NCBI GenBank assembly: GCA_016195025.1
Contig: JACQAL010000002.1
Coordinates: 6,477 to 70,476, forward strand
Direction of reading: 5' to 3'
Source: Bacteroidota bacterium
GTDB taxonomy: Bacteria; Bacteroidota; Bacteroidia; Palsa-948
Length of the DNA: 64,000 bases
In this document: piece after piece, positions 847 to 57,185 of the stretch
Layout of the letters: each line of letters begins with the position of its first letter
Position numbering within the stretch: position 1 is the first letter of the stretch
Notes under the pieces: model-generated
The model's database searches: none
What the model was told of the DNA's origin: nothing
Seen by the model: the letters and a program-made list of their open reading frames with translations, nothing else
Made by a program: the position numbers and the translations under genes

Positions 847-1818
847 ATGAAAAGGAAATTGGTTTTCTTATTTATTACGATTAATTTTCCGGTTGTTCTT
901 TTTTCTCAGGATACTTACTTTTCTCAATACAATTCTTTTCCGCTTCAATTAGATAAATCATTGGCAGGAAGCGCAGGTTGTTCGCGTGCTCTGGCAGGAA
1001 CACGCCTGCAATGGCTGAATTTTGATGGCGGATACATCACCCGATATTTTTCTTACGACCAGTATTCAAGGCATATCTGTGGCGGATTGGGATTGGACTA
1101 CTCTCATTCTGATGAATCGAACGGAGTAATAAAAAATGATTTTGTTTACCTGACCTATTCTCCTTCCATCTCAATTGGAAAAAGAGATTCTTCCGATTCG
1201 CTCAGACCTGTTGTTATTAAACCTGCATTCAATGGAGGATATGTGCGGCATTGGTTTGATTATTCTCAATTAACTTTTGGAGACGAGATAGACCCTTATT
1301 ACGGATTTATCTATGGAACACGGGAAACACAAAACCAATACATAGTTAATGCGCTTGATTTTGGTGCGGGATTATCTGTGTATGGAAAAACTTTTGTTGC
1401 CGGATTTTACGCACATCATATTACGCAACCTGATTTGGCTTTTGTATACGGCAATGGCCCATTGTACATGAGAAAAGTTTTTCATGCTTCCTATCTGCTG
1501 AAGTGCAAATGGCTTGGCAAATTCACGCTTGTTCCTTCATGCGTATATGAAGCGCAGGGCAATGTAAGAAGAACTGAACTTTCATTGTCTGCAAAGTATG
1601 ATAAATATATTCTGGGAATCAGCCGCAGGTTTGCAAGTTCTGTTGTGTTCATGGCGGGCGTTGAATATAAATTTCTGAAGGTTGGGTATGCGTATGATTT
1701 GAACACAACGCCCATAAGCAAAATAGTTGGCGCAACGCATGAAATACTTTTATGTTCACGGTTTGCTTGCAGGGAGAAAAAGAAAAGAATAAGAACGCTG
1801 AAGTTTTTCGGAATGTAA
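847..1818 (+). CDS. T9SS membrane protein of the PorP/SprF family
   Basis: 323 aa with a signal peptide, then 'QDTYFSQYNSFPLQLDKSLAGSAG', which matches the conserved PorP/SprF N-terminal motif (QxxxFSQY...NPA.AG). The size (about 320 aa) fits and it sits next to T9SS cargo genes. Confidence 0.75.
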   Translation: MKRKLVFLFITINFPVVLFSQDTYFSQYNSFPLQLDKSLAGSAGCSRALAGTRLQWLNFDGGYITRYFSYDQYSRHICGGLGLDYSHSDESNGVIKNDFVYLTYSPSISIGKRDSSDSLRPVVIKPAFNGGYVRHWFDYSQLTFGDEIDPYYGFIYGTRETQNQYIVNALDFGAGLSVYGKTFVAGFYAHHITQPDLAFVYGNGPLYMRKVFHASYLLKCKWLGKFTLVPSCVYEAQGNVRRTELSLSAKYDKYILGISRRFASSVVFMAGVEYKFLKVGYAYDLNTTPISKIVGATHEILLCSRFACREKKKRIRTLKFFGM

Positions 1819-1819
1819 G

Positions 1820-2251
1820 TTACAGGAAGAGCGTGAACTTCCCCTGAAATTTATAATACTCACCGTTTTTGTCTTTCGCTTCAATGTAATAACCCAATGT
1901 CTGCATTGCCATACTATTTCCATCTGTTCCTCTTCCGTCAAACTTTGCCGGAGTGTTATACTTGACAATAATTTTTCCTGTCCTGTCAAAAATACTCAGG
2001 TGATAATCGGAAGAATCCAGTCCGCATGATTTTGGTTCCCAATAATCATTAGAGCCATCTCCATTTGGAGTAAATCCGGTTGGAACATAAAATGCAAAAG
2101 TTATGGGAGGTACGGTGCAACTGCAATTAACATTGTATGTTTTGGCAACCGTTTCATAAGTAATGAGTGAATCATAGTCCGGCTTCTGTTTTTCTTTTTT
2201 GCAGGAAGCAATTACAAGAACGAAAAGAAAAAATATAATCACGCGATTCAT
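1820..2251 (-). CDS. Small lipoprotein made up almost entirely of a T9SS type-B (gliding-motility-associated) C-terminal domain
   Basis: The internal start 'MNRVIIFFLFVLVIASC' gives a lipoprotein signal with a lipobox. 'FYVPTGFTPNGDGSNDYWEP...LSIFDRTGKII' is the hallmark FTPNGDGxND type-B CTD. The longer ORF-track start at 2473 runs back through the PIN gene region and is unlikely. Confidence 0.6.
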   Translation of the reverse strand: MNRVIIFFLFVLVIASCKKEKQKPDYDSLITYETVAKTYNVNCSCTVPPITFAFYVPTGFTPNGDGSNDYWEPKSCGLDSSDYHLSIFDRTGKIIVKYNTPAKFDGRGTDGNSMAMQTLGYYIEAKDKNGEYYKFQGKFTLFL

Positions 2252-2305
2252 GGCACTAAGATAAAACAAAATATTGGAATAATAATTTCTACATTTGCCT
2301 CCACT

Positions 2306-2398
2306 ATGAAAACCCTCCAATTCCGCGAAGCCCTCCGCGAAGCCATGAGCGAAGAAATGCGTGCCGTGTTCCTTAAGCGGACAAAATTTAATGATTAA
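2306..2398 (+). pseudogene. Duplicated remnant of the pdhB 5' end (MKTLQFREALREAMSEEMRA, then out-of-context residues to a stop)
   Basis: Nucleotides 2315-2366 are identical to 3057-3108, the first 52 nt after the pdhB start, and weaker similarity continues for about 15 nt. It is followed immediately by the inserted PIN cassette. Confidence 0.6.
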
Positions 2399-2400
2399 CT

Positions 2401-2856
2401 TTGTGCATGAGAATTTATATTGATACTTCTGTAATTGGTGGATATTTTGATGAAGAATTTGAGGAAAGTTCAAAAAAACTCTTTGATGAATTCAAGGCAG
2501 GAAAAAAAACAATGATTATTTCGGATGTTACGCTCAAGGAATTAGAAGATGCCCCTGTACGAGTACGCAGTTTACTTGACACGGTTTCCGATAAGCATAA
2601 AGAAATTGTTTTACTCGATGATGAAGCAAGAGAACTTGCCAACCATTATCTGAAAGAAAAAATTGTAACAGAAAAATCATTGGCAGATACCAGGCACATT
2701 GCAATTGCTTCCGTAAACCGCGCAGATGTTCTGGTGAGTTGGAATTTTAAACATATTGTGAACTATAAACTCATTCGCCTTTATAATTCTGTAAACTTAA
2801 AATTTGGTTACCCGATGCTTGAAATAAGAACACCTCAAGAAACAGTGGAACCTTAA
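2401..2856 (+). CDS. PIN-domain protein (VapC-like ribonuclease fold); the start may be M at 2407
   Basis: 'MRIYIDTSVI...' carries the N-terminal acidic Asp of the PIN fold. The segment 'TRHIAIASVNRADVLVSWNFKH' is typical of PilT-N/PIN proteins. Length is 151 aa. Confidence 0.65.
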   Translation: MCMRIYIDTSVIGGYFDEEFEESSKKLFDEFKAGKKTMIISDVTLKELEDAPVRVRSLLDTVSDKHKEIVLLDDEARELANHYLKEKIVTEKSLADTRHIAIASVNRADVLVSWNFKHIVNYKLIRLYNSVNLKFGYPMLEIRTPQETVEP

Positions 2857-2868
2857 AAAATAATACAA

Positions 2869-3027
2869 ATGAGAAAGAAAAAATTTGACTCCGTCAAAAT
2901 GATGCGTGAAATCAGGAATAAACTGAGTAAGCGCTGGGCAAAAAATCCTGAACAGGAAATGGCAGATTTGGAAAGGATAAGGAGCAAGTATAAAATCAGG
3001 AAAAGAACAAAAAAACACGCTGCATAA
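2869..3027 (+). CDS. Small basic ORF of 52 aa (MRKKKFDSVKMMREIRNKLSKRWAKNPEQEMADLERIRSKYKIRKRTKKHAA); possibly the partner of the PIN protein
   Basis: The ATG lies 13 nt after the PIN stop. It is Lys/Arg-rich, is not in the ORF track (under 60 aa), and lies inside the inserted cassette. Confidence 0.3.
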   Translation: MRKKKFDSVKMMREIRNKLSKRWAKNPEQEMADLERIRSKYKIRKRTKKHAA

Positions 3028-3047
3028 AATCAACCTAACTTATAACG

Positions 3048-4025
3048 GTGAAAGTTCTCCAATTCCGCGAAGCCCTCCGCGAAGCCATGAGCGAAGAAAT
3101 GCGTGCCGATGAGCGCGTGTTCCTCATGGGCGAAGAAGTGGCGGAGTACAATGGCGCTTATAAAGTGAGCCAGGGAATGCTTGCCGAGTTTGGCGCAAAG
3201 CGCGTGGTGGATACTCCCATTGCCGAACTCGGTTTCACCGGCATTGGCGTGGGTGCTGCCATGAACGGCTTGCGCCCCATCATCGAGTTCATGACATTTA
3301 ATTTTTCACTCGTTGCCATTGACCAGGTAATCAACAACGCGAGCAAATTATATAACATGAGCGGAGGGCAGTTTAATGTTCCCATTGTTTTCAGAGGACC
3401 CACGGCTTCTGCCGGGCAGTTGGCGGCACAGCACTCCAATGCGTTTGACAATTGGTATGCAAACTGCGCGGGGCTGAAAGTGATTGTGCCTTCCAATCCT
3501 GCCGATGCGAAAGGTTTATTGAAGAGCGCCATCCGCGATGATGACCCGGTGATTTTTATGGAAAGCGAACAGATGTATGGCGACAAAGGCGAAGTTCCCG
3601 AAGGAGAATACGTGATTCCGATTGGCGTTGCCGATATAAAAAGAGAAGGAAGCGATGTTACCATTGTGAGTTTCGGAAAAATTATTAAGGAAGCGTATAA
3701 AGCCGCGGACGAACTTGCCAGAGAAAATATTTCTGCCGAAGTGATTGACCTGCGCACCATCCGCCCGATTGATTATGCAGCGGTGGTGGAGTCGGTGAAG
3801 AAAACCAACCGCCTCGTGATTCTTGAAGAAGCATGGCCCCTCGGAAATATTTCCACAGAGATTACTTACCACATTCAGAAGAATGCGTTTGATTATTTAG
3901 ATGCTCCCGTCCGCAGGGTGAACTGCGAAGATGTTCCGCTCTCCTATTCCGCTCCGTTTGTGGAAGCCGCCCTGCCGAACATGAAAAAAGTGATTCGCGC
4001 GGTGAAGGAGGTAATGTATCTCTGA
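3048..4025 (+). CDS. pdhB: Pyruvate (2-oxoacid) dehydrogenase E1 component, beta subunit (transketolase-like), with a GTG start
   Basis: 325 aa beginning 'MKVLQFREALREAMSEEMRADERVFLMGEEVAEYNGAYKVSQGMLAEFG...'. This is the canonical E1-beta N-terminus, with the C-terminal transketolase domain 'VTIVSFGK...DLRTIRPID'. Confidence 0.9.
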   Translation: MKVLQFREALREAMSEEMRADERVFLMGEEVAEYNGAYKVSQGMLAEFGAKRVVDTPIAELGFTGIGVGAAMNGLRPIIEFMTFNFSLVAIDQVINNASKLYNMSGGQFNVPIVFRGPTASAGQLAAQHSNAFDNWYANCAGLKVIVPSNPADAKGLLKSAIRDDDPVIFMESEQMYGDKGEVPEGEYVIPIGVADIKREGSDVTIVSFGKIIKEAYKAADELARENISAEVIDLRTIRPIDYAAVVESVKKTNRLVILEEAWPLGNISTEITYHIQKNAFDYLDAPVRRVNCEDVPLSYSAPFVEAALPNMKKVIRAVKEVMYL

Positions 4026-4031
4026 TTTATT

Positions 4032-4068
4032 CCCCCTTAATGAAGGGGGCAATCCCGCTTTGCGGGAT
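4032..4068 (+). terminator. Two tandem GC-rich hairpins downstream of pdhB
   Basis: 'CCCCCTTaatgAAGGGGG' (4032-4049) and 'ATCCCGCtttGCGGGAT' (4052-4068), 7 nt after the stop. No strong T-tract follows, which is common in Bacteroidota. Confidence 0.45.
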
Positions 4069-4223
4069 GGGGGATGTCTTCTCATATCTTGTTAGCAACT
4101 TTCATCTTCCCTTCGGAAGAGAAAAATTTACATTCGCGTAAAATATTTCAGCACTCGTTCGTTACGTGCTCGTTTCTACAACCCGAAATTTGAACCATTA
4201 ACCCTAAACTTTCCAACTCTTCC

Positions 4224-5291
4224 ATGAAAAAACATTTCCTTTCTTTTTGCCTGCTGCTTACTGCCAACTGCCAACTTGTATTTTCCCAGATGGCCGGCAA
4301 TTCCACCTACAACCAGGCGGCAGAAAATTACAAATCATCCCTTTCTCTTCGCGGTAGCAGATCTAATTCCGAAAGTATAACAGGGTATGAAGCACCTAAA
4401 ATGTCAAATTACGATTATCAGCAGCAAACGCAAACCTATTACACTTCTTCCGTTGCAAATGCATGGGTGATTAGCGATACTGTTTTTGAATTGAGCGTGA
4501 ATGCGCTGATGAATGCGCACGCCAACTCGTATGTGGTTTCTCTCGGAGTTTCGCAGGCAGCGGGCACCATTGATTCCTGTCAGCAAATCATCAACGAGCG
4601 AATCAATAATTTCATTGCGCAACTTATGAAGTCAGGAATAAAGAAGGAAGATATATTTATTGATTTTGTTTCGCAGGTTCCCGTTTTCGAAGTTGCCATT
4701 GAAAAAAAGATTTTCAGCAAGCGCTATAACGAACTGCCCAGCGGGTTTGAACTCAAGAAAAATATTCACATCGCTTACAGGAAAAATGAAACGCTTGATG
4801 AAATTGTAACGCTTGCCGCCAAGAGCGAGATTTACGACATCATCAAAGTGGATTACATCATCAATACTATTTCTGCCGTGTACGACACGCTTCGCAATGC
4901 ATCCATAAAATTGCTGAATGAAAAAGCGGAGGACTATAAAAAACTCGGAATCAAATTTAATCCTAAGTTCCAGGTGATGGCGGAAGATGTGCAGGCGGTT
5001 TATCCGATTGAGCGCTATAAAAGTTATACTGCTTACAACAATTCATCTTTGCAGGCGCTGAAGAAAAGCGGAGTTTCTTCCACCAGCATTACTTACCAGC
5101 CCAAGCAAGCCACGCTTTACTACGATAAACTTCCCTACAACAATTATGATATAGTAATAAATCCGGTTGTGATTGAACCTGCCGCGCAGTTCACCTATAG
5201 TTTGAAAGTGCGTTATACTTACAAAGATGATTATGTTCCGAAAGAAAAAGTAACACCAATAACAACGACAGTAACTCCTCCTAAAAAATAA
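4224..5291 (+). CDS. Secreted protein of unknown function, possibly SIMPL/DUF541-like
   Basis: Signal peptide 'MKKHFLSFCLLLTANCQLVFSQ'. 'VVSLGVSQAAGTIDSCQQIINERINNFIAQLMKSGIKKEDIFIDFVSQVPVFE' loosely follows the SIMPL pattern. No catalytic motifs were recognised. Confidence 0.35.
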   Translation: MKKHFLSFCLLLTANCQLVFSQMAGNSTYNQAAENYKSSLSLRGSRSNSESITGYEAPKMSNYDYQQQTQTYYTSSVANAWVISDTVFELSVNALMNAHANSYVVSLGVSQAAGTIDSCQQIINERINNFIAQLMKSGIKKEDIFIDFVSQVPVFEVAIEKKIFSKRYNELPSGFELKKNIHIAYRKNETLDEIVTLAAKSEIYDIIKVDYIINTISAVYDTLRNASIKLLNEKAEDYKKLGIKFNPKFQVMAEDVQAVYPIERYKSYTAYNNSSLQALKKSGVSSTSITYQPKQATLYYDKLPYNNYDIVINPVVIEPAAQFTYSLKVRYTYKDDYVPKEKVTPITTTVTPPKK

Positions 5292-5304
5292 GGAAGACGT
5301 GGAA

Positions 5305-5345
5305 GAGCGGAAGATTGGTATTTGTCATTCTTCCGTCCTTCCCCC
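5305..5345 (+). terminator. Imperfect hairpin after the 4224-5291 gene
   Basis: 'GGAAGAGCGGAAGAttggtatttgtcaTTCTTCCGTCCTTCC' pairs over 13-15 bp with one or two mismatches. There is no T-tract. Confidence 0.3.
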
Positions 5346-5400
5346 TACAAGAAATTCGATTTCAAAAATATTTCCACCCACATAATTAAAATCTTAAAAC

Positions 5401-8400
5401 ATGAATCGCAAAATGATGCTCACGCTCACTGCGCTCGCAGTGATTGGAATTGTTTCCATTCCTTTCCTGAAAAAAAGCGGAACTGTTTCAGGCGCGCAGA
5501 AAGTAAATCCTGAATACAGCGAATATATTTCTGCATTCACTGCCGGATATATTTCTTCGGAAAGCACCATCCGCATTGTTCTCGCAAGCGAAGCGGAAGG
5601 CGAACACGAGTTCAACAAACCAACGGATGAAAAATTATTTTCCTTCTCTCCGAACATTGAGGGGACAACGGTGTGGATTGACAACCGCACGCTCGAATTC
5701 CGCCCGAAGAGTAAACTTCCTTCGGGACAGAAATACGATTGCACGTTTCATCTTTCGAAAGTCACAGGCGTCCCTTCCAACCTCGAAGATTTTGATTTCA
5801 CTTTTTCCACGCTCACGCAATCGTATGATGTGTATGTGGACGGAATGAAAACTGTTGACAAGAAAAATATGGTCTGGCAAAAAATTGCAGGGCAGATTGT
5901 AGTTGCCGATAATGTGGAGAACGATGCCGTGGAAAAAATGCTCAGCGCAATTGAAGGAGGAAGAAAATTAAAAATCACATGGGAGCACAGCGTTGAAAAC
6001 AAACACAAATTCTCGATTGACAGCGTGGAGCGCAAAGAAAAAGAAATGGAAGTTCTCATCGAATGGACAGGTGCGCCAATCGGTGTGGAAGGAGGCAACT
6101 CGCAGAAGTTTATGATTCCCGCTCTTGGAGATTTTAAAGTGATGGATATAAAAGTTATTCAGGAACCCGAACAATATGTTTCCGTTCAGTTCTCAGACCC
6201 GCTTCTCGAAAAACAAAATCTCGATGGATTAATTTCCTGTGACAACAGCGGAGTGAATGTAACTTTCAAATATATCATTGAAGACAACGAAGTGAAAGCA
6301 TATCCTTCCACGCGCCAGAGCGGAGTGAGAAATATAAATGTGGAACCCGGAGTGAAAAACATTCTCGGCTACGCGCTCAAATCAAAAATGACTATGGAAG
6401 TGATGTTCGAAGAACTCAAGCCGCAGGTGAGCATGACGGGCAAAGGCGTGATTCTTCCGAGTTCGAACGAAGGATTTGTTCTTCCCTTTCAGGCAGTGAG
6501 TTTGAAAGCGGTGGATGTGAAAGTGATTAAGATTTTTGAAAACAACATTGCGCAGTTTCTGCAGGTGAATGAACTGGGCGGAGAAAGAGAATTGAAAAGA
6601 GTGGGAAGAGTGATGCTCAAAAAAACCATTCAACTGAATCCGAAGAGCGAAGTGGATTTGCACAAGTGGTCAACTTACTATCTGGATTTATCCGATTTGG
6701 TGAAAGCCGAGCCGGGCGCTATATATAAGGTATCACTTGGTTTCCGCAAGTCGCAATCGGTTTGTCATTGCGAAGGCGAAACAAAAAATAAATCGAACAC
6801 GGTGGAAGTGGATGAGGAATTCAACGCGGACAATAACACGGATGACAATGTGCAAACTAATTATTATGATTATTACGGAGAAGATTATTATGGCGAAGGT
6901 TATTATGATGAAGAAGGCGGTGGTTATAATTACAGCGAGCGCGATGACCCGTGCAAGTCAAGTTTCTATCGCAGCAGCCACGAAGTAAGCCGCAATATTC
7001 TCGCGTCTGATTTAGGAATTATTGCGAAGAAAGGAACGGGCGGACAAATGACTTTTCTTGTAACCGATTTGAAAACCACCAAGCCGCAATCGGGAGTGAA
7101 CATCGAACTCTACAATTACCAGCAGCAATTAATTTCTTCTCTCAAAACAAACGGAGAAGGAATGGTGCAGATAGACAACATGAAAAAAGTTCCGTTCCTT
7201 CTCGTTGCGAAAACCGGAAATCAAAGAGGATATTTAAAACTGGATGACGGCTCTTCGCTTTCGCTTTCGATGTTTGATGTGGGCGGACAAACGGTGGAAA
7301 AAGGAATGAAAGGATTTATTTATGGCGAACGCGGTGTGTGGCGCCCGGGCGATTCGATTTATCTTTCCTTCATTCTCGAAGACAAACAAAAAACACTGCC
7401 TGCAAATCATCCCGTCACCATGGAATTAATTAATCCAAGATGGCAGACGGTAAAAAAACTTACTTCGACAAAAGGACTGAACGGCTTCTATAATTTTTCC
7501 ACTTCTACTTCGCAGGATGCTCCCACAGGAAACTGGACGGCAAGAGTAAAAGTGGGAGGTGCAACTTTCTCCAAAGATTTGAAAGTGGAAACCATCATGC
7601 CGAACCGTCTGAAACTTCATCTGGATTTTGGCGCGGAAAAAATTTATTCCAATGCAAAAGATGTAAAAGGCGAACTCGAAGTGAAATGGCTGCACGGTGC
7701 AATTGCGCGCGGGCTTGCCGCAAAAGTGGATGTTACGCTTGCGGAACAAGTCACCGAGTTCAAGGGTTTCGATGGATTTGAGTTTGATGACCCGACAGTG
7801 CATTTCGAAACGGAACAGCAGACAATTTTTGACGGCAATCTTTCGCAGGAAGGAAAAGCGACTGTGATTCCCAATCTGAAAACAAAAACTTCTGCGCAAG
7901 GAATGCTGCGCGCGAGTTTTGTGGTAAGAGTTTTTGAAGAAGGCGGAAATTTTTCCATAGATAGATTTTCTCTTCCGTATTCTCCGTTCCCTTCGTATGT
8001 CGGAATAAAATCTCCCGAAGGAGATAAATATTCCGGGATGATTATGACCGATACGAACAACGTGGTGCAGGTTGCGACTGTGGATGAAAACGGAAAACCG
8101 ATTTCCCGCGACAAACTCATTGTGAAAATTTATAAAGTGCAGTGGCGCTGGTGGTGGGATTCGTACGAAGAAAATCTCGGACAGTATGTGGGCGATGAAT
8201 ATCATCAGCCCTATCAGACGAAAGAAATTTCTACTGTGAATGGTAAAGGACAATTCATTCTCCGCGTGAACAAACCGGATTGGGGAAGATTTCTTGTTCG
8301 CATCACCGACCCTGTGAGCGGGCATTCCACCGGAAAAACAATTTACATTGACTGGCCTTCGTGGCGTGAGCGCGGAAACCAGGGCGACAATCAAGCGGCA

Positions 8401-33986: not shown

Positions 33987-34049
33987 GCTGGTCGCTGGTC
34001 GCTGGTCGCTGGTCGCTGGTCGCTGGTCGCTGGTCGCTGGTCGCTGGTC
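33987..34049. repeat. Perfect heptanucleotide microsatellite (GCTGGTC) x 9
   Basis: 63 nt of uninterrupted 'gctggtc' units, about 60 nt upstream of the 33927 ORF start, in the gap between two T9SS protease genes. Confidence 0.9.
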
Positions 34050-34210
34050 AAACGGTTTCATAGAGCGAACATAACTGATTGCCGTCAATTTATTGCAAGG
34101 AGAGAGGGAAAAGATACGATTTTTTGCAAACAAGTTTTCAACAATAAAAAAAACCCTGAATCTGCCTTAAACAGACAGTCCCGGGGTTTTCTGTGAGAGA
34201 ATTTTACCTT

Positions 34211-57024: not shown

Positions 57025-57129
57025 GAGCACTCCTCCGGAGCGCAGGAGCACTCCTCCGCTCGTGAGGAACACTCCTCCGCTCGTGAGGAACACTCCTCCG
57101 CTCGTGAGGAACACTCCTCCGCTCGTGAG
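57025..57129. repeat. Tandem 21 bp repeat x 5 in the 680 bp gap upstream of the SprB-repeat genes
   Basis: Copy 1 is 'GAGCACTCCTCCGGAGCGCAG' (diverged). Copy 2 is 'GAGCACTCCTCCGCTCGTGAG'. Copies 3 to 5 are 'GAACACTCCTCCGCTCGTGAG', then 'GACACGCC'. Confidence 0.85.
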
Positions 57130-57185
57130 GACACGCCAAATCGTTTGAGAATTCTTCTCAAACGGAGTAAGAGGTATTTCAGGAG

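Follow-up and report, generated by a model that had tools for sequence, protein, structure and literature searches.

How does a compact toxin-type gene pair come to lie within the beginning of a housekeeping gene, bracketed by two copies of that beginning? We addressed this question at pdhB, the gene for pyruvate dehydrogenase E1 beta, in a 64-kb stretch of contig JACQAL010000002.1 (hereafter the window) from a Bacteroidota metagenome-assembled genome (MAG). Between the two copies stand a gene for a VapC-like PIN-domain protein and a small basic open reading frame (ORF). The answer we favour, at a probability of roughly 0.62, is that a horizontally acquired two-gene cassette of ~0.67 kb inserted into pdhB codons 1–27 and duplicated ~70 nt of its target, an event of the kind called 'insertion with long target duplication'. 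The resulting layout is A-B-cassette-B-C.

A long exact direct repeat of pdhB sequence frames the cassette. Positions 2315–2366 and 3057–3108 are identical over 52 nt, as a preliminary description of this DNA had reported, and the match is far beyond chance: about 4e-22 repeats of such length are expected in 64 kb of the window's composition. An exact-repeat search ranked it as the longest exact repeat of the window, with a copy number of two. Besides it, the 64 kb holds no dispersed exact repeat of 25 nt or more and only two short tandem arrays. The similarity extends 5′ through TGAAA (2307–2311 and 3049–3053), within start regions that read ATGAAAACC in the left copy and GTGAAAGTT in the right. 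In the 3′ direction a 9-nt gap in the left copy is followed by a shared TGTTCCT (2367–2373 and 3118–3124), where homology stops. The preliminary description had extended the match by about 15 nt with a 9-nt indel; the indel is present, and the length was generous, as 7–9 nt match exactly and ~11 of 15 overall. Counting the gapped extension, the repeat spans ~70 nt.

The two copies of the pdhB start have had different fates. The left copy (2306–2398, forward strand) keeps the native ATG and pdhB nucleotides 1–61, lacks 9 nt, resumes with nucleotides 71–77 and then runs into cassette sequence. It forms a 30-codon ORF, translated as MKTLQFREALREAMSEEMRAVFLKRTKFND, whose stop (2396–2398) lies 8 nt ahead of the PIN ATG; an upstream copy with an ATG that runs to a stop had been described correctly. 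The inserted segment of ~674 nt (2374–3047, forward strand; boundaries from alignment with the empty sites described below) consists of a 33-nt leader, the PIN gene, the small ORF and a 20-nt tail. Intact pdhB follows at 3048–4025 on the same strand, covers positions 1–324 of 327 in the family model NF006667 and begins with a non-native GTG-AAA-GTT. GenBank entries MBI3500174.1 (PIN) and MBI3500176.1 (pdhB), on a MAG contig of 92.9 kb, agree with these ORF calls.

On alignment with cassette-free relatives, the insertion is derived. The closest pdhB relatives, three distinct sequences on four contigs (L085, L086/L087 and L168), have 92–93% amino acid identity to the window's protein, and all carry a single pdhB start without the cassette, so that the empty site proposed as a check in the preliminary description was found when sought. 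Their upstream box TTTCTA(C/T)ATTTG and their start ATG-AAA-AC(C/T) align with the window's left copy. The 50 nt 5′ of the right copy are unrelated to the relatives' sequence, which bears out the earlier remark that pdhB now starts from GTG in a new upstream context. An MKT N-terminus is the commonest start among the top 120 pdhB homologues (34 of them) and occurs in nearly all of the closest ones. Cassette-free relatives share their box and start with the left copy, which marks the left copy's start as the native one and the insertion as derived; by the same alignment, the right copy's GTG-AAA-GTT and the left copy's 9-nt deletion are derived as well. The repeated sequence is single-copy at the relatives' empty site, and these relatives, at 92–93% protein identity, are not of the same species.

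Base composition marks the insert as foreign. Its GC content is 34.4% (2376–3047), while pdhB has 50.4% and the window 42.1%; the insert is foreign in composition and probably horizontally acquired. It contains the PIN gene and the small ORF only.

The first cassette gene encodes a protein with a VapC-like fold. The gene (2407–2856, forward strand) encodes 149 aa, or 151 aa from the alternative TTG at 2401 that GenBank chose. Its Pfam PIN match is weak (E = 1.6e-4, below the gathering cut-off), and PIN_12 and PIN_3 also match below threshold. An AlphaFold model built with 33 homologues reached a pLDDT of 91, and its best matches among PDB structures are VapC toxins: Rickettsia felis VapC2, Shigella VapC, Pyrococcus horikoshii VapC4 and Mycobacterium tuberculosis VapC20. 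The VapC2, VapC4 and VapC20 matches have E values down to 6e-5 and TM scores of 0.56–0.62, so the modelled fold is VapC-like. D8, E47 and D96 show no variation within the family; the fourth acidic position that such proteins usually have was not clearly identified. VapC toxins are RNases. The family is large, with 7,670 matches at E ≤ 1e-3, and relatives occur in more than 589 GTDB species genomes, which span several archaeal lineages as well as many phyla of bacteria; in NCBI, homologues bear the name 'VapC family toxin'. Neither cassette protein was matched in sequence searches of PADLOC, NCBIfam and PDB.

The second gene is a conserved partner of the first. It is a 52-aa basic ORF (2869–3027, forward strand) with 20 K/R against 6 D/E and the motif FDxVKMMREIRxKLS, and it has no Pfam, NCBIfam or PADLOC family match. 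We surveyed 165 loci with a PIN homologue, 156 of them testable for the partner and 147 for flanking repeats. A partner homologue (motif FDAVKMMREIRDKLS) lies directly 3′ of the PIN gene in 148 of the 156, in bacteria and archaea alike; it often overlaps the PIN gene and measures 43–85 aa. The window has no antitoxin gene upstream of the PIN gene; its conserved partner stands downstream and matches no antitoxin family. Of the two family assignments suggested earlier as a check, that of the PIN protein comes out as VapC-like, and the small ORF matches none of the families searched.

The pair also occurs on plasmids. Three Leptospira plasmids carry it immediately 3′ of the replication initiation gene, with the PIN protein annotated as a VapC family toxin. 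On one of them, Leptospira interrogans plasmid pLiSL47 (L170, 2364–3780), the PIN gene and a 63-aa partner directly follow that gene, and iteron-like 22–28-nt repeats lie 5′ of the PIN gene and ~600 nt past the partner. We rejected a target duplication at this plasmid copy, since its 26-nt repeat resembles iterons beside the rep gene. A plasmid or phage vehicle for the family was rejected too: the homologue is on only these three plasmids and in none of the phage records. Partner conservation, the VapC-like fold and the rep-gene neighbourhood uphold the earlier view of a toxin-first pair, and judging from sequence and model the pair is probably a toxin-antitoxin or addiction-type module with the toxin in front.

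The mobile unit is little more than the two ORFs. Cassette pairs that are 84–95% identical in nucleotides and sit in unrelated flanks share just 620–770 nt, from 18–90 nt 5′ of the PIN ATG to the small-ORF stop or a few nucleotides beyond. The window's cassette has nucleotide homology to its nearest relatives over the two ORFs only, from ~2385/2407 to 3017. The distance from repeat to ORF ranges from 1 to 650 nt across the family, the repeat-bounded insert of L034 is ~200 nt larger than the shared cassette, and 32 junction pairs show no conserved motif or cassette terminus. These variable limits and the lack of a junction motif speak against recognition of the element's ends by a dedicated transposase or site-specific recombinase. 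Intragenomic transposition bursts were also rejected: where a genome has two copies, they are always divergent and share no nucleotide homology.

No mobility gene accompanies the insert. Neither two integrases nor an IS1595 transposase, used as tblastn queries, gave a credible match in the 64-kb window, in agreement with the earlier statement that no integrase remains. No inverted repeat bounds the insert, its ends are not conserved and the duplication has no fixed length (26–446 nt across the family), so the repeat is, as had been argued, unlike a transposon target-site duplication.

These observations bear on the first of two mechanisms offered in the preliminary description, an att-like integration that regenerates a gene end. 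A tyrosine or serine recombinase acting in trans would have integrated an integrase-less element whose attP mimics the pdhB 5′ end, and the repeats would be attL and attR. A repeat length of 26–60 nt is usual for att sites at which a gene end is restored, and the right copy's non-native start GTGAAAGTT looks as if supplied by the element. Tyrosine integrases adjoin the cassette in L001, L078 and L156, and L088 shows tandem accretion of cassettes with one repeat unit between them. Yet the window has no integrase homologue, the cassette ends are not conserved and the L001 integrase lies outside the repeat-bounded segment. Repeats of 26–446 nt that vary in sequence and length from locus to locus would need a separate recombinase at each site. 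We consider site-specific integration unlikely, and of the two mechanisms offered we favour the other, a duplication-mediated insertion. In L001 itself (2491–6020), a PIN cassette is bracketed by a 26-nt repeat, with a tyrosine integrase and an IS1595 transposase immediately beyond it; a third, degenerate copy of that repeat (5647–5676) follows a methyltransferase gene, and 4–5 tandem units of ~65 nt occupy 5680–6020.

Long flanking repeats recur around the cassette across the family. We compared the 700 nt 5′ of each PIN gene with the region 3′ of the small ORF; as controls (n = 180) we placed virtual cassettes 1.8 kb away within the same loci. Strict direct repeats (≥26 nt, ≥85% identity) flank 26 of the 147 testable loci against 3 of the 180 controls (Fisher p = 2e-7), with a median length of 60 nt and a range of 26–446. 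Under a looser threshold (E < 1e-3) the counts are 42 of 147 and 14 of 180 (Fisher p = 7e-7). A comparison of the longest exact core with random expectation gave a rough estimate not clearly above chance and was not used.

Flanking repeats differ in sequence at each locus and often span the end of a long host ORF. Host 3′ ends are duplicated in a molybdopterin oxidoreductase (L011, 213 nt, 91%), an ABC ATPase (L073), hydantoinase B (L044), an HgmA-like protein (L071) and a major facilitator superfamily transporter (L135). Host 5′ ends are duplicated in the window's pdhB, in a DegT aminotransferase (L077) and in L133 and L115. A repeat over the host start or stop leaves the host gene intact. 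The L112 repeat lies inside its host gene, a Fer4_20/Pyr_redox_2 oxidoreductase, 100 nt short of the stop, again in the layout A-B-cassette-B-C. A recurrent target gene was rejected: pdhB is a target in the window only, and the other recurrences are ABC ATPase paralogues and three integrases.

Repeats of cassette sequence itself occur at a few loci. In L115 the first PIN codons are repeated past the small ORF (2957–3011 and 3595–3649), and in L003 (3956–3977 and 4483–4504; also L004) a small-ORF fragment lies upstream of the PIN gene. These cases suggest partly deleted tandem cassettes.

Mismatches between repeat copies point to recombination with imported DNA. Over all cases they fall at codon positions 1/2/3 in the proportion 9/11/35 (chi-square p = 1e-5). 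In four cleanly coding cases, 27 of 39 mismatches are at third positions, where neutral decay of one copy predicts ~45% (p = 0.002). With this third-position excess, the copies resemble a pair of functional alleles, and imported DNA seems to have recombined with them either at insertion or later. Clean target duplication followed by neutral decay is disfavoured at these other loci by the same excess; later allelic recombination could mimic the signal. In the window, both derived features adjoin junctions: GTGAAAGTT stands at the right copy's left end, and the 9-nt deletion at the left copy's right end. They may stem from a crossover inside a carried pdhB fragment or from repair scars close to the junctions, since both predict such features.

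Could the arrangement have arisen in two steps, or in the assembler? A tandem duplication of the pdhB start might have come first and the cassette later; a route to the same product through tandem duplication and subsequent recombination has been put forward (PMC3457768). Or the contig, which derives from a MAG, could be a chimera of two strain variants, and the allele-like repeat copies at other loci are also expected from a collapsed strain bubble. Against an artefact, the window's copies are identical over 52 nt and not allelic, the junctions consist of unique sequence and no annotated ORF is broken. The same architecture recurs in many independent assemblies, including contigs of 0.7–0.9 Mb (L073, L057) whose record names and sizes suggest a long-read origin, which argues against a short-read artefact. 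We hold a two-step or artefactual origin to be improbable.

Could the cassette instead move itself? Here the PIN nuclease, perhaps with the small basic protein, would make wide staggered breaks or home, giving an autonomous element with long duplications. The enrichment of flanking repeats is tied to the cassette, the mobile unit is essentially two ORFs, and DNA breakage by restriction-modification (RM) modules has been proposed as the driver of such insertions (PMC2853133). Long flanking duplications are, however, not confined to the PIN cassette. A DUF4160/DUF2442-like pair in L088 is bracketed by the repeat unit that also borders the PIN pairs there, and two control positions show the same: in L024 (2740–3808) a nucleotidyltransferase-like gene of 190 aa lies between 61-nt repeats of 90% identity, and in L018 (701–2174) an IS4-like transposase gene lies between 20-nt exact repeats. 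The best structural matches are VapC toxins, which are RNases; the divergence of same-genome copies gives no sign of bursts; and repeat-to-ORF distances vary widely, as given above. Self-mobilisation appears very unlikely.

Some family members belong to arrays, which raises the further question of an integron origin. About ten loci have at least three copies of the repeat unit; in the other ~25, the window among them, unstructured host sequence occurs as a simple pair. Structured units occur only in L053, L160, L079 and L060. L053 (1–4700; a Bacteroidetes MAG from Lac Pavin) is an integron-like array: a fragment of an Xer/IntI-type tyrosine recombinase is co-oriented with cassettes in the order Fic, TrmO-like, PIN with small ORF, and a 196-aa ORF, with four imperfect palindromes of 145 nt between them. 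The closest metagenomic relative of the window's cassette, L088, has four unstructured units of 70–130 nt (1236–3910). The modules between them are a truncated PIN pair, a full PIN pair with a 74-aa ORF, and the DUF4160/DUF2442-like pair. Each unit reads like the C-terminus of a FAD-binding dehydrogenase subunit, and no intact host gene is visible on the contig. In the Thermoplasmata-type contigs L005 (1299–5855) and L091 (2397–4548), PIN cassettes stand among units of 200–390 nt with ~2 kb spacing and 80–96% identity, which may represent an archaeal cassette array.

An integron integrase could have placed the cassette at a secondary site in pdhB, with attC lost later. The L053 module, the repeat arrays at other loci and the heptamer ACCTAAC (3034–3040), which fits RYYYAAC and lies 3′ of the small ORF, speak for this. 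A 7-nt core match is nevertheless expected by chance at the few-percent level, and neither the window's repeat (z = −1.44) nor the cassette tail (z = +0.45) folds as DNA better than its shuffles; the L088 unit behaves likewise. An integron attC site in the window was accordingly rejected: it has no attC-like hairpin, and pdhB follows the small ORF after only 20 nt. Integron recombination is not known to duplicate tens of target bases. An escaped integron cassette is the least probable of the explanations considered.

Insertion with long target duplication remains the reading we prefer, and it suggests a route that would need no transposase or integrase. Host recombination or replication functions would join the incoming DNA by illegitimate or homology-assisted joining, and the target stretch would be copied twice. 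Once formed, the repeats could offer homology arms by which the cassette spreads to related genomes or is lost from them. An addictive cassette and a preserved host gene would explain persistence. The allele-like divergence of repeat copies leads to the hypothesis that the repeats act as homology arms for spread by recombination.

Several observations weigh against this reading. The nearest pdhB found is only 93% identical, and neither a same-species empty site nor a donor was found; at that distance, the exact pre-insertion sequence is only inferred. The right copy's GTG-AAA start, which matches the native one at 5 of 9 nt, adjoins one junction and the left copy's 9-nt deletion adjoins another, and a clean duplication explains neither. 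The source contig is metagenome-assembled. About 70% of the family's loci have no flanking repeat, and some repeats elsewhere are structured array units (attC-like in L053) instead of target duplications. Finally, how the duplication arises is inferred at each step.

A bolder generalisation is that PIN and small-protein cassettes form a widespread, recombinase-free mobile class in bacteria and archaea, which spreads either by long, variable duplications of its own making, with the nuclease involved, or by using host gene ends as portable homology arms, through which ordinary homologous recombination could place the cassette in any genome that has the conserved gene end. We regard it as rather unlikely. 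If true, it would explain how addiction modules, both toxin-antitoxin and RM, move without transposases or integrases.

The insertion appears to have changed how pdhB is transcribed. A motif search placed a −7 promoter box of native pdhB, TACATTTG, at 2290–2297 on the forward strand, at the same distance from the ATG as in L085, L086 and L168. A second promoter-like box, TAACTTTG, lies in the cassette leader at 2396–2403 on the same strand, just 5′ of the PIN ATG, and boxes like it lie ahead of the PIN gene in L001 and L002. Both conform to TAnnTTTG, which we take to be the Bacteroidota −7 promoter consensus and which occurs on the forward strand of 2000–4400 only at 2290 and 2396. The box at 2290–2297 would now drive the left copy and the cassette. 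No promoter box lies between the cassette and pdhB, and the region 2150–4250 has no terminator-like site. Because neither separates the cassette from pdhB, read-through into pdhB, as the preliminary description had supposed, is plausible: the displaced native promoter and the cassette would together transcribe it. A central-metabolism gene would thereby have been rewired, away from its own promoter and native start and dependent on transcription through a toxin-type cassette. In other family members, the PIN ATG lies a few nucleotides past the host-gene stop (L011) or overlaps it (L112), compared with 8 nt in the window, which suggests that translation of such cassettes is often coupled to that of the invaded host gene.

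Elsewhere, the window holds repeats of other kinds. Positions 1–757 encode a Kelch-like repeat protein with a type IX secretion C-terminal tail. Its reading frame shifts near 262–270, from frame 3 (ending TARYGAVV) to frame 2 (continuing FAFGGKGYIGTG), so that it is either a pseudogene or carries a sequencing error. The direct-repeat families D1 and D2 (134–144 nt) are blade repeats of this protein. The two tandem arrays are a heptamer, (GCTGGTC)n, at 33987–34050 and four copies of the 21-mer CACTCCTCCGCTCGTGAGGAA at 57049–57130.

How does this element compare with known systems? It shares with type II VapBC modules a VapC-like fold, the residues D8, E47 and D96, a tightly linked and often overlapping two-gene operon and, on plasmids, a rep-gene neighbour. 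It differs in that the toxin comes first, the partner is a basic protein of 43–85 aa that matches no known antitoxin family, and the Pfam PIN match is sub-threshold. Integron cassettes are likewise compact, cassette-sized units found in unrelated contexts in bacteria and archaea, and the L053 array with its attC-like palindromes strengthens the likeness. Unlike them, the window has neither attC nor integrase, and its flanking repeat is unstructured pdhB coding sequence. Toxin-antitoxin cassettes and cross-domain transfer are among the subjects discussed for integrons in PMC9668308. Elements that integrate at att sites and regenerate a gene end, including integrase-less ones mobilised in cis, also leave gene-end direct repeats and an intact gene. 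Here, in contrast, there is no integrase or common core, and repeats are locus-specific in length and sequence.

Two further comparisons involve recombination at gene ends. In homology-facilitated illegitimate recombination and displacement arrays (T6SS effector-immunity loci, Rhs C-terminal displacement; PMC5361080), a conserved host segment anchors the module, the other end joins illegitimately and gene-end fragments are repeated. Such a likeness would explain allele-like copy differences and arrays such as L088. Displacement arrays use one dedicated locus and a constant anchor gene, whereas the hosts here are diverse housekeeping genes, and the gene-internal duplication of L112 is unexplained by a single anchor on an undisrupted donor. 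In fungal mitochondria, free-standing endonuclease ORFs carry a replacement C-terminus for the gene they invade and leave a partial duplicate of the end beside it, the copies being allele-like. The nuclease family and the genetic system differ from ours, and homing there needs DNA cleavage.

The closest counterpart is the insertion of RM gene complexes. Nobusato et al. 2000 (Gene 259:99) reportedly described insertion with long target duplication of such complexes. Furuta, Abe and Kobayashi 2010 (PMC2853133) give its marks as unique repeats of 46–423 bp, which often lie over a start or stop codon, around a low-GC insert that lacks mobility genes. Our case matches in its small addiction-type module without a mobility gene and in its locus-specific repeats (46–423 bp there, 26–446 nt here), which are single-copy at the empty site and often lie over the host start or stop; the host gene survives and the insert is low in GC. 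It differs in its cargo, a VapC-like PIN protein and partner for which DNA double-strand breakage is not an obvious property. The evidence also differs, as our survey draws on metagenome assemblies and one set of moderately distant empty sites. A later statement widens long target duplication to 'RM systems and other DNAs' (PMC3457768), and in three bacterial species 10–18% of small variable segments are repeat-flanked, mostly by repeats under 30 bp (PMC2884548). Among the titles and abstracts listed for the phrase 'long target duplication', none reports a toxin-antitoxin family inserted in this way, and a review of toxin-antitoxin systems merely cites the RM paper.

The feature at pdhB belongs to this known but little-studied kind of insertion, and the added result is its recurrence, at family level, around a VapC-like cassette in many phyla. 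Movement of toxin-antitoxin systems between chromosomes is largely unexplained outside integrons, plasmids and islands. Since a VapC-type RNase is not expected to cut DNA, the footprint described here argues for a general, host-mediated route for small addiction modules rather than for breakage by a restriction enzyme.

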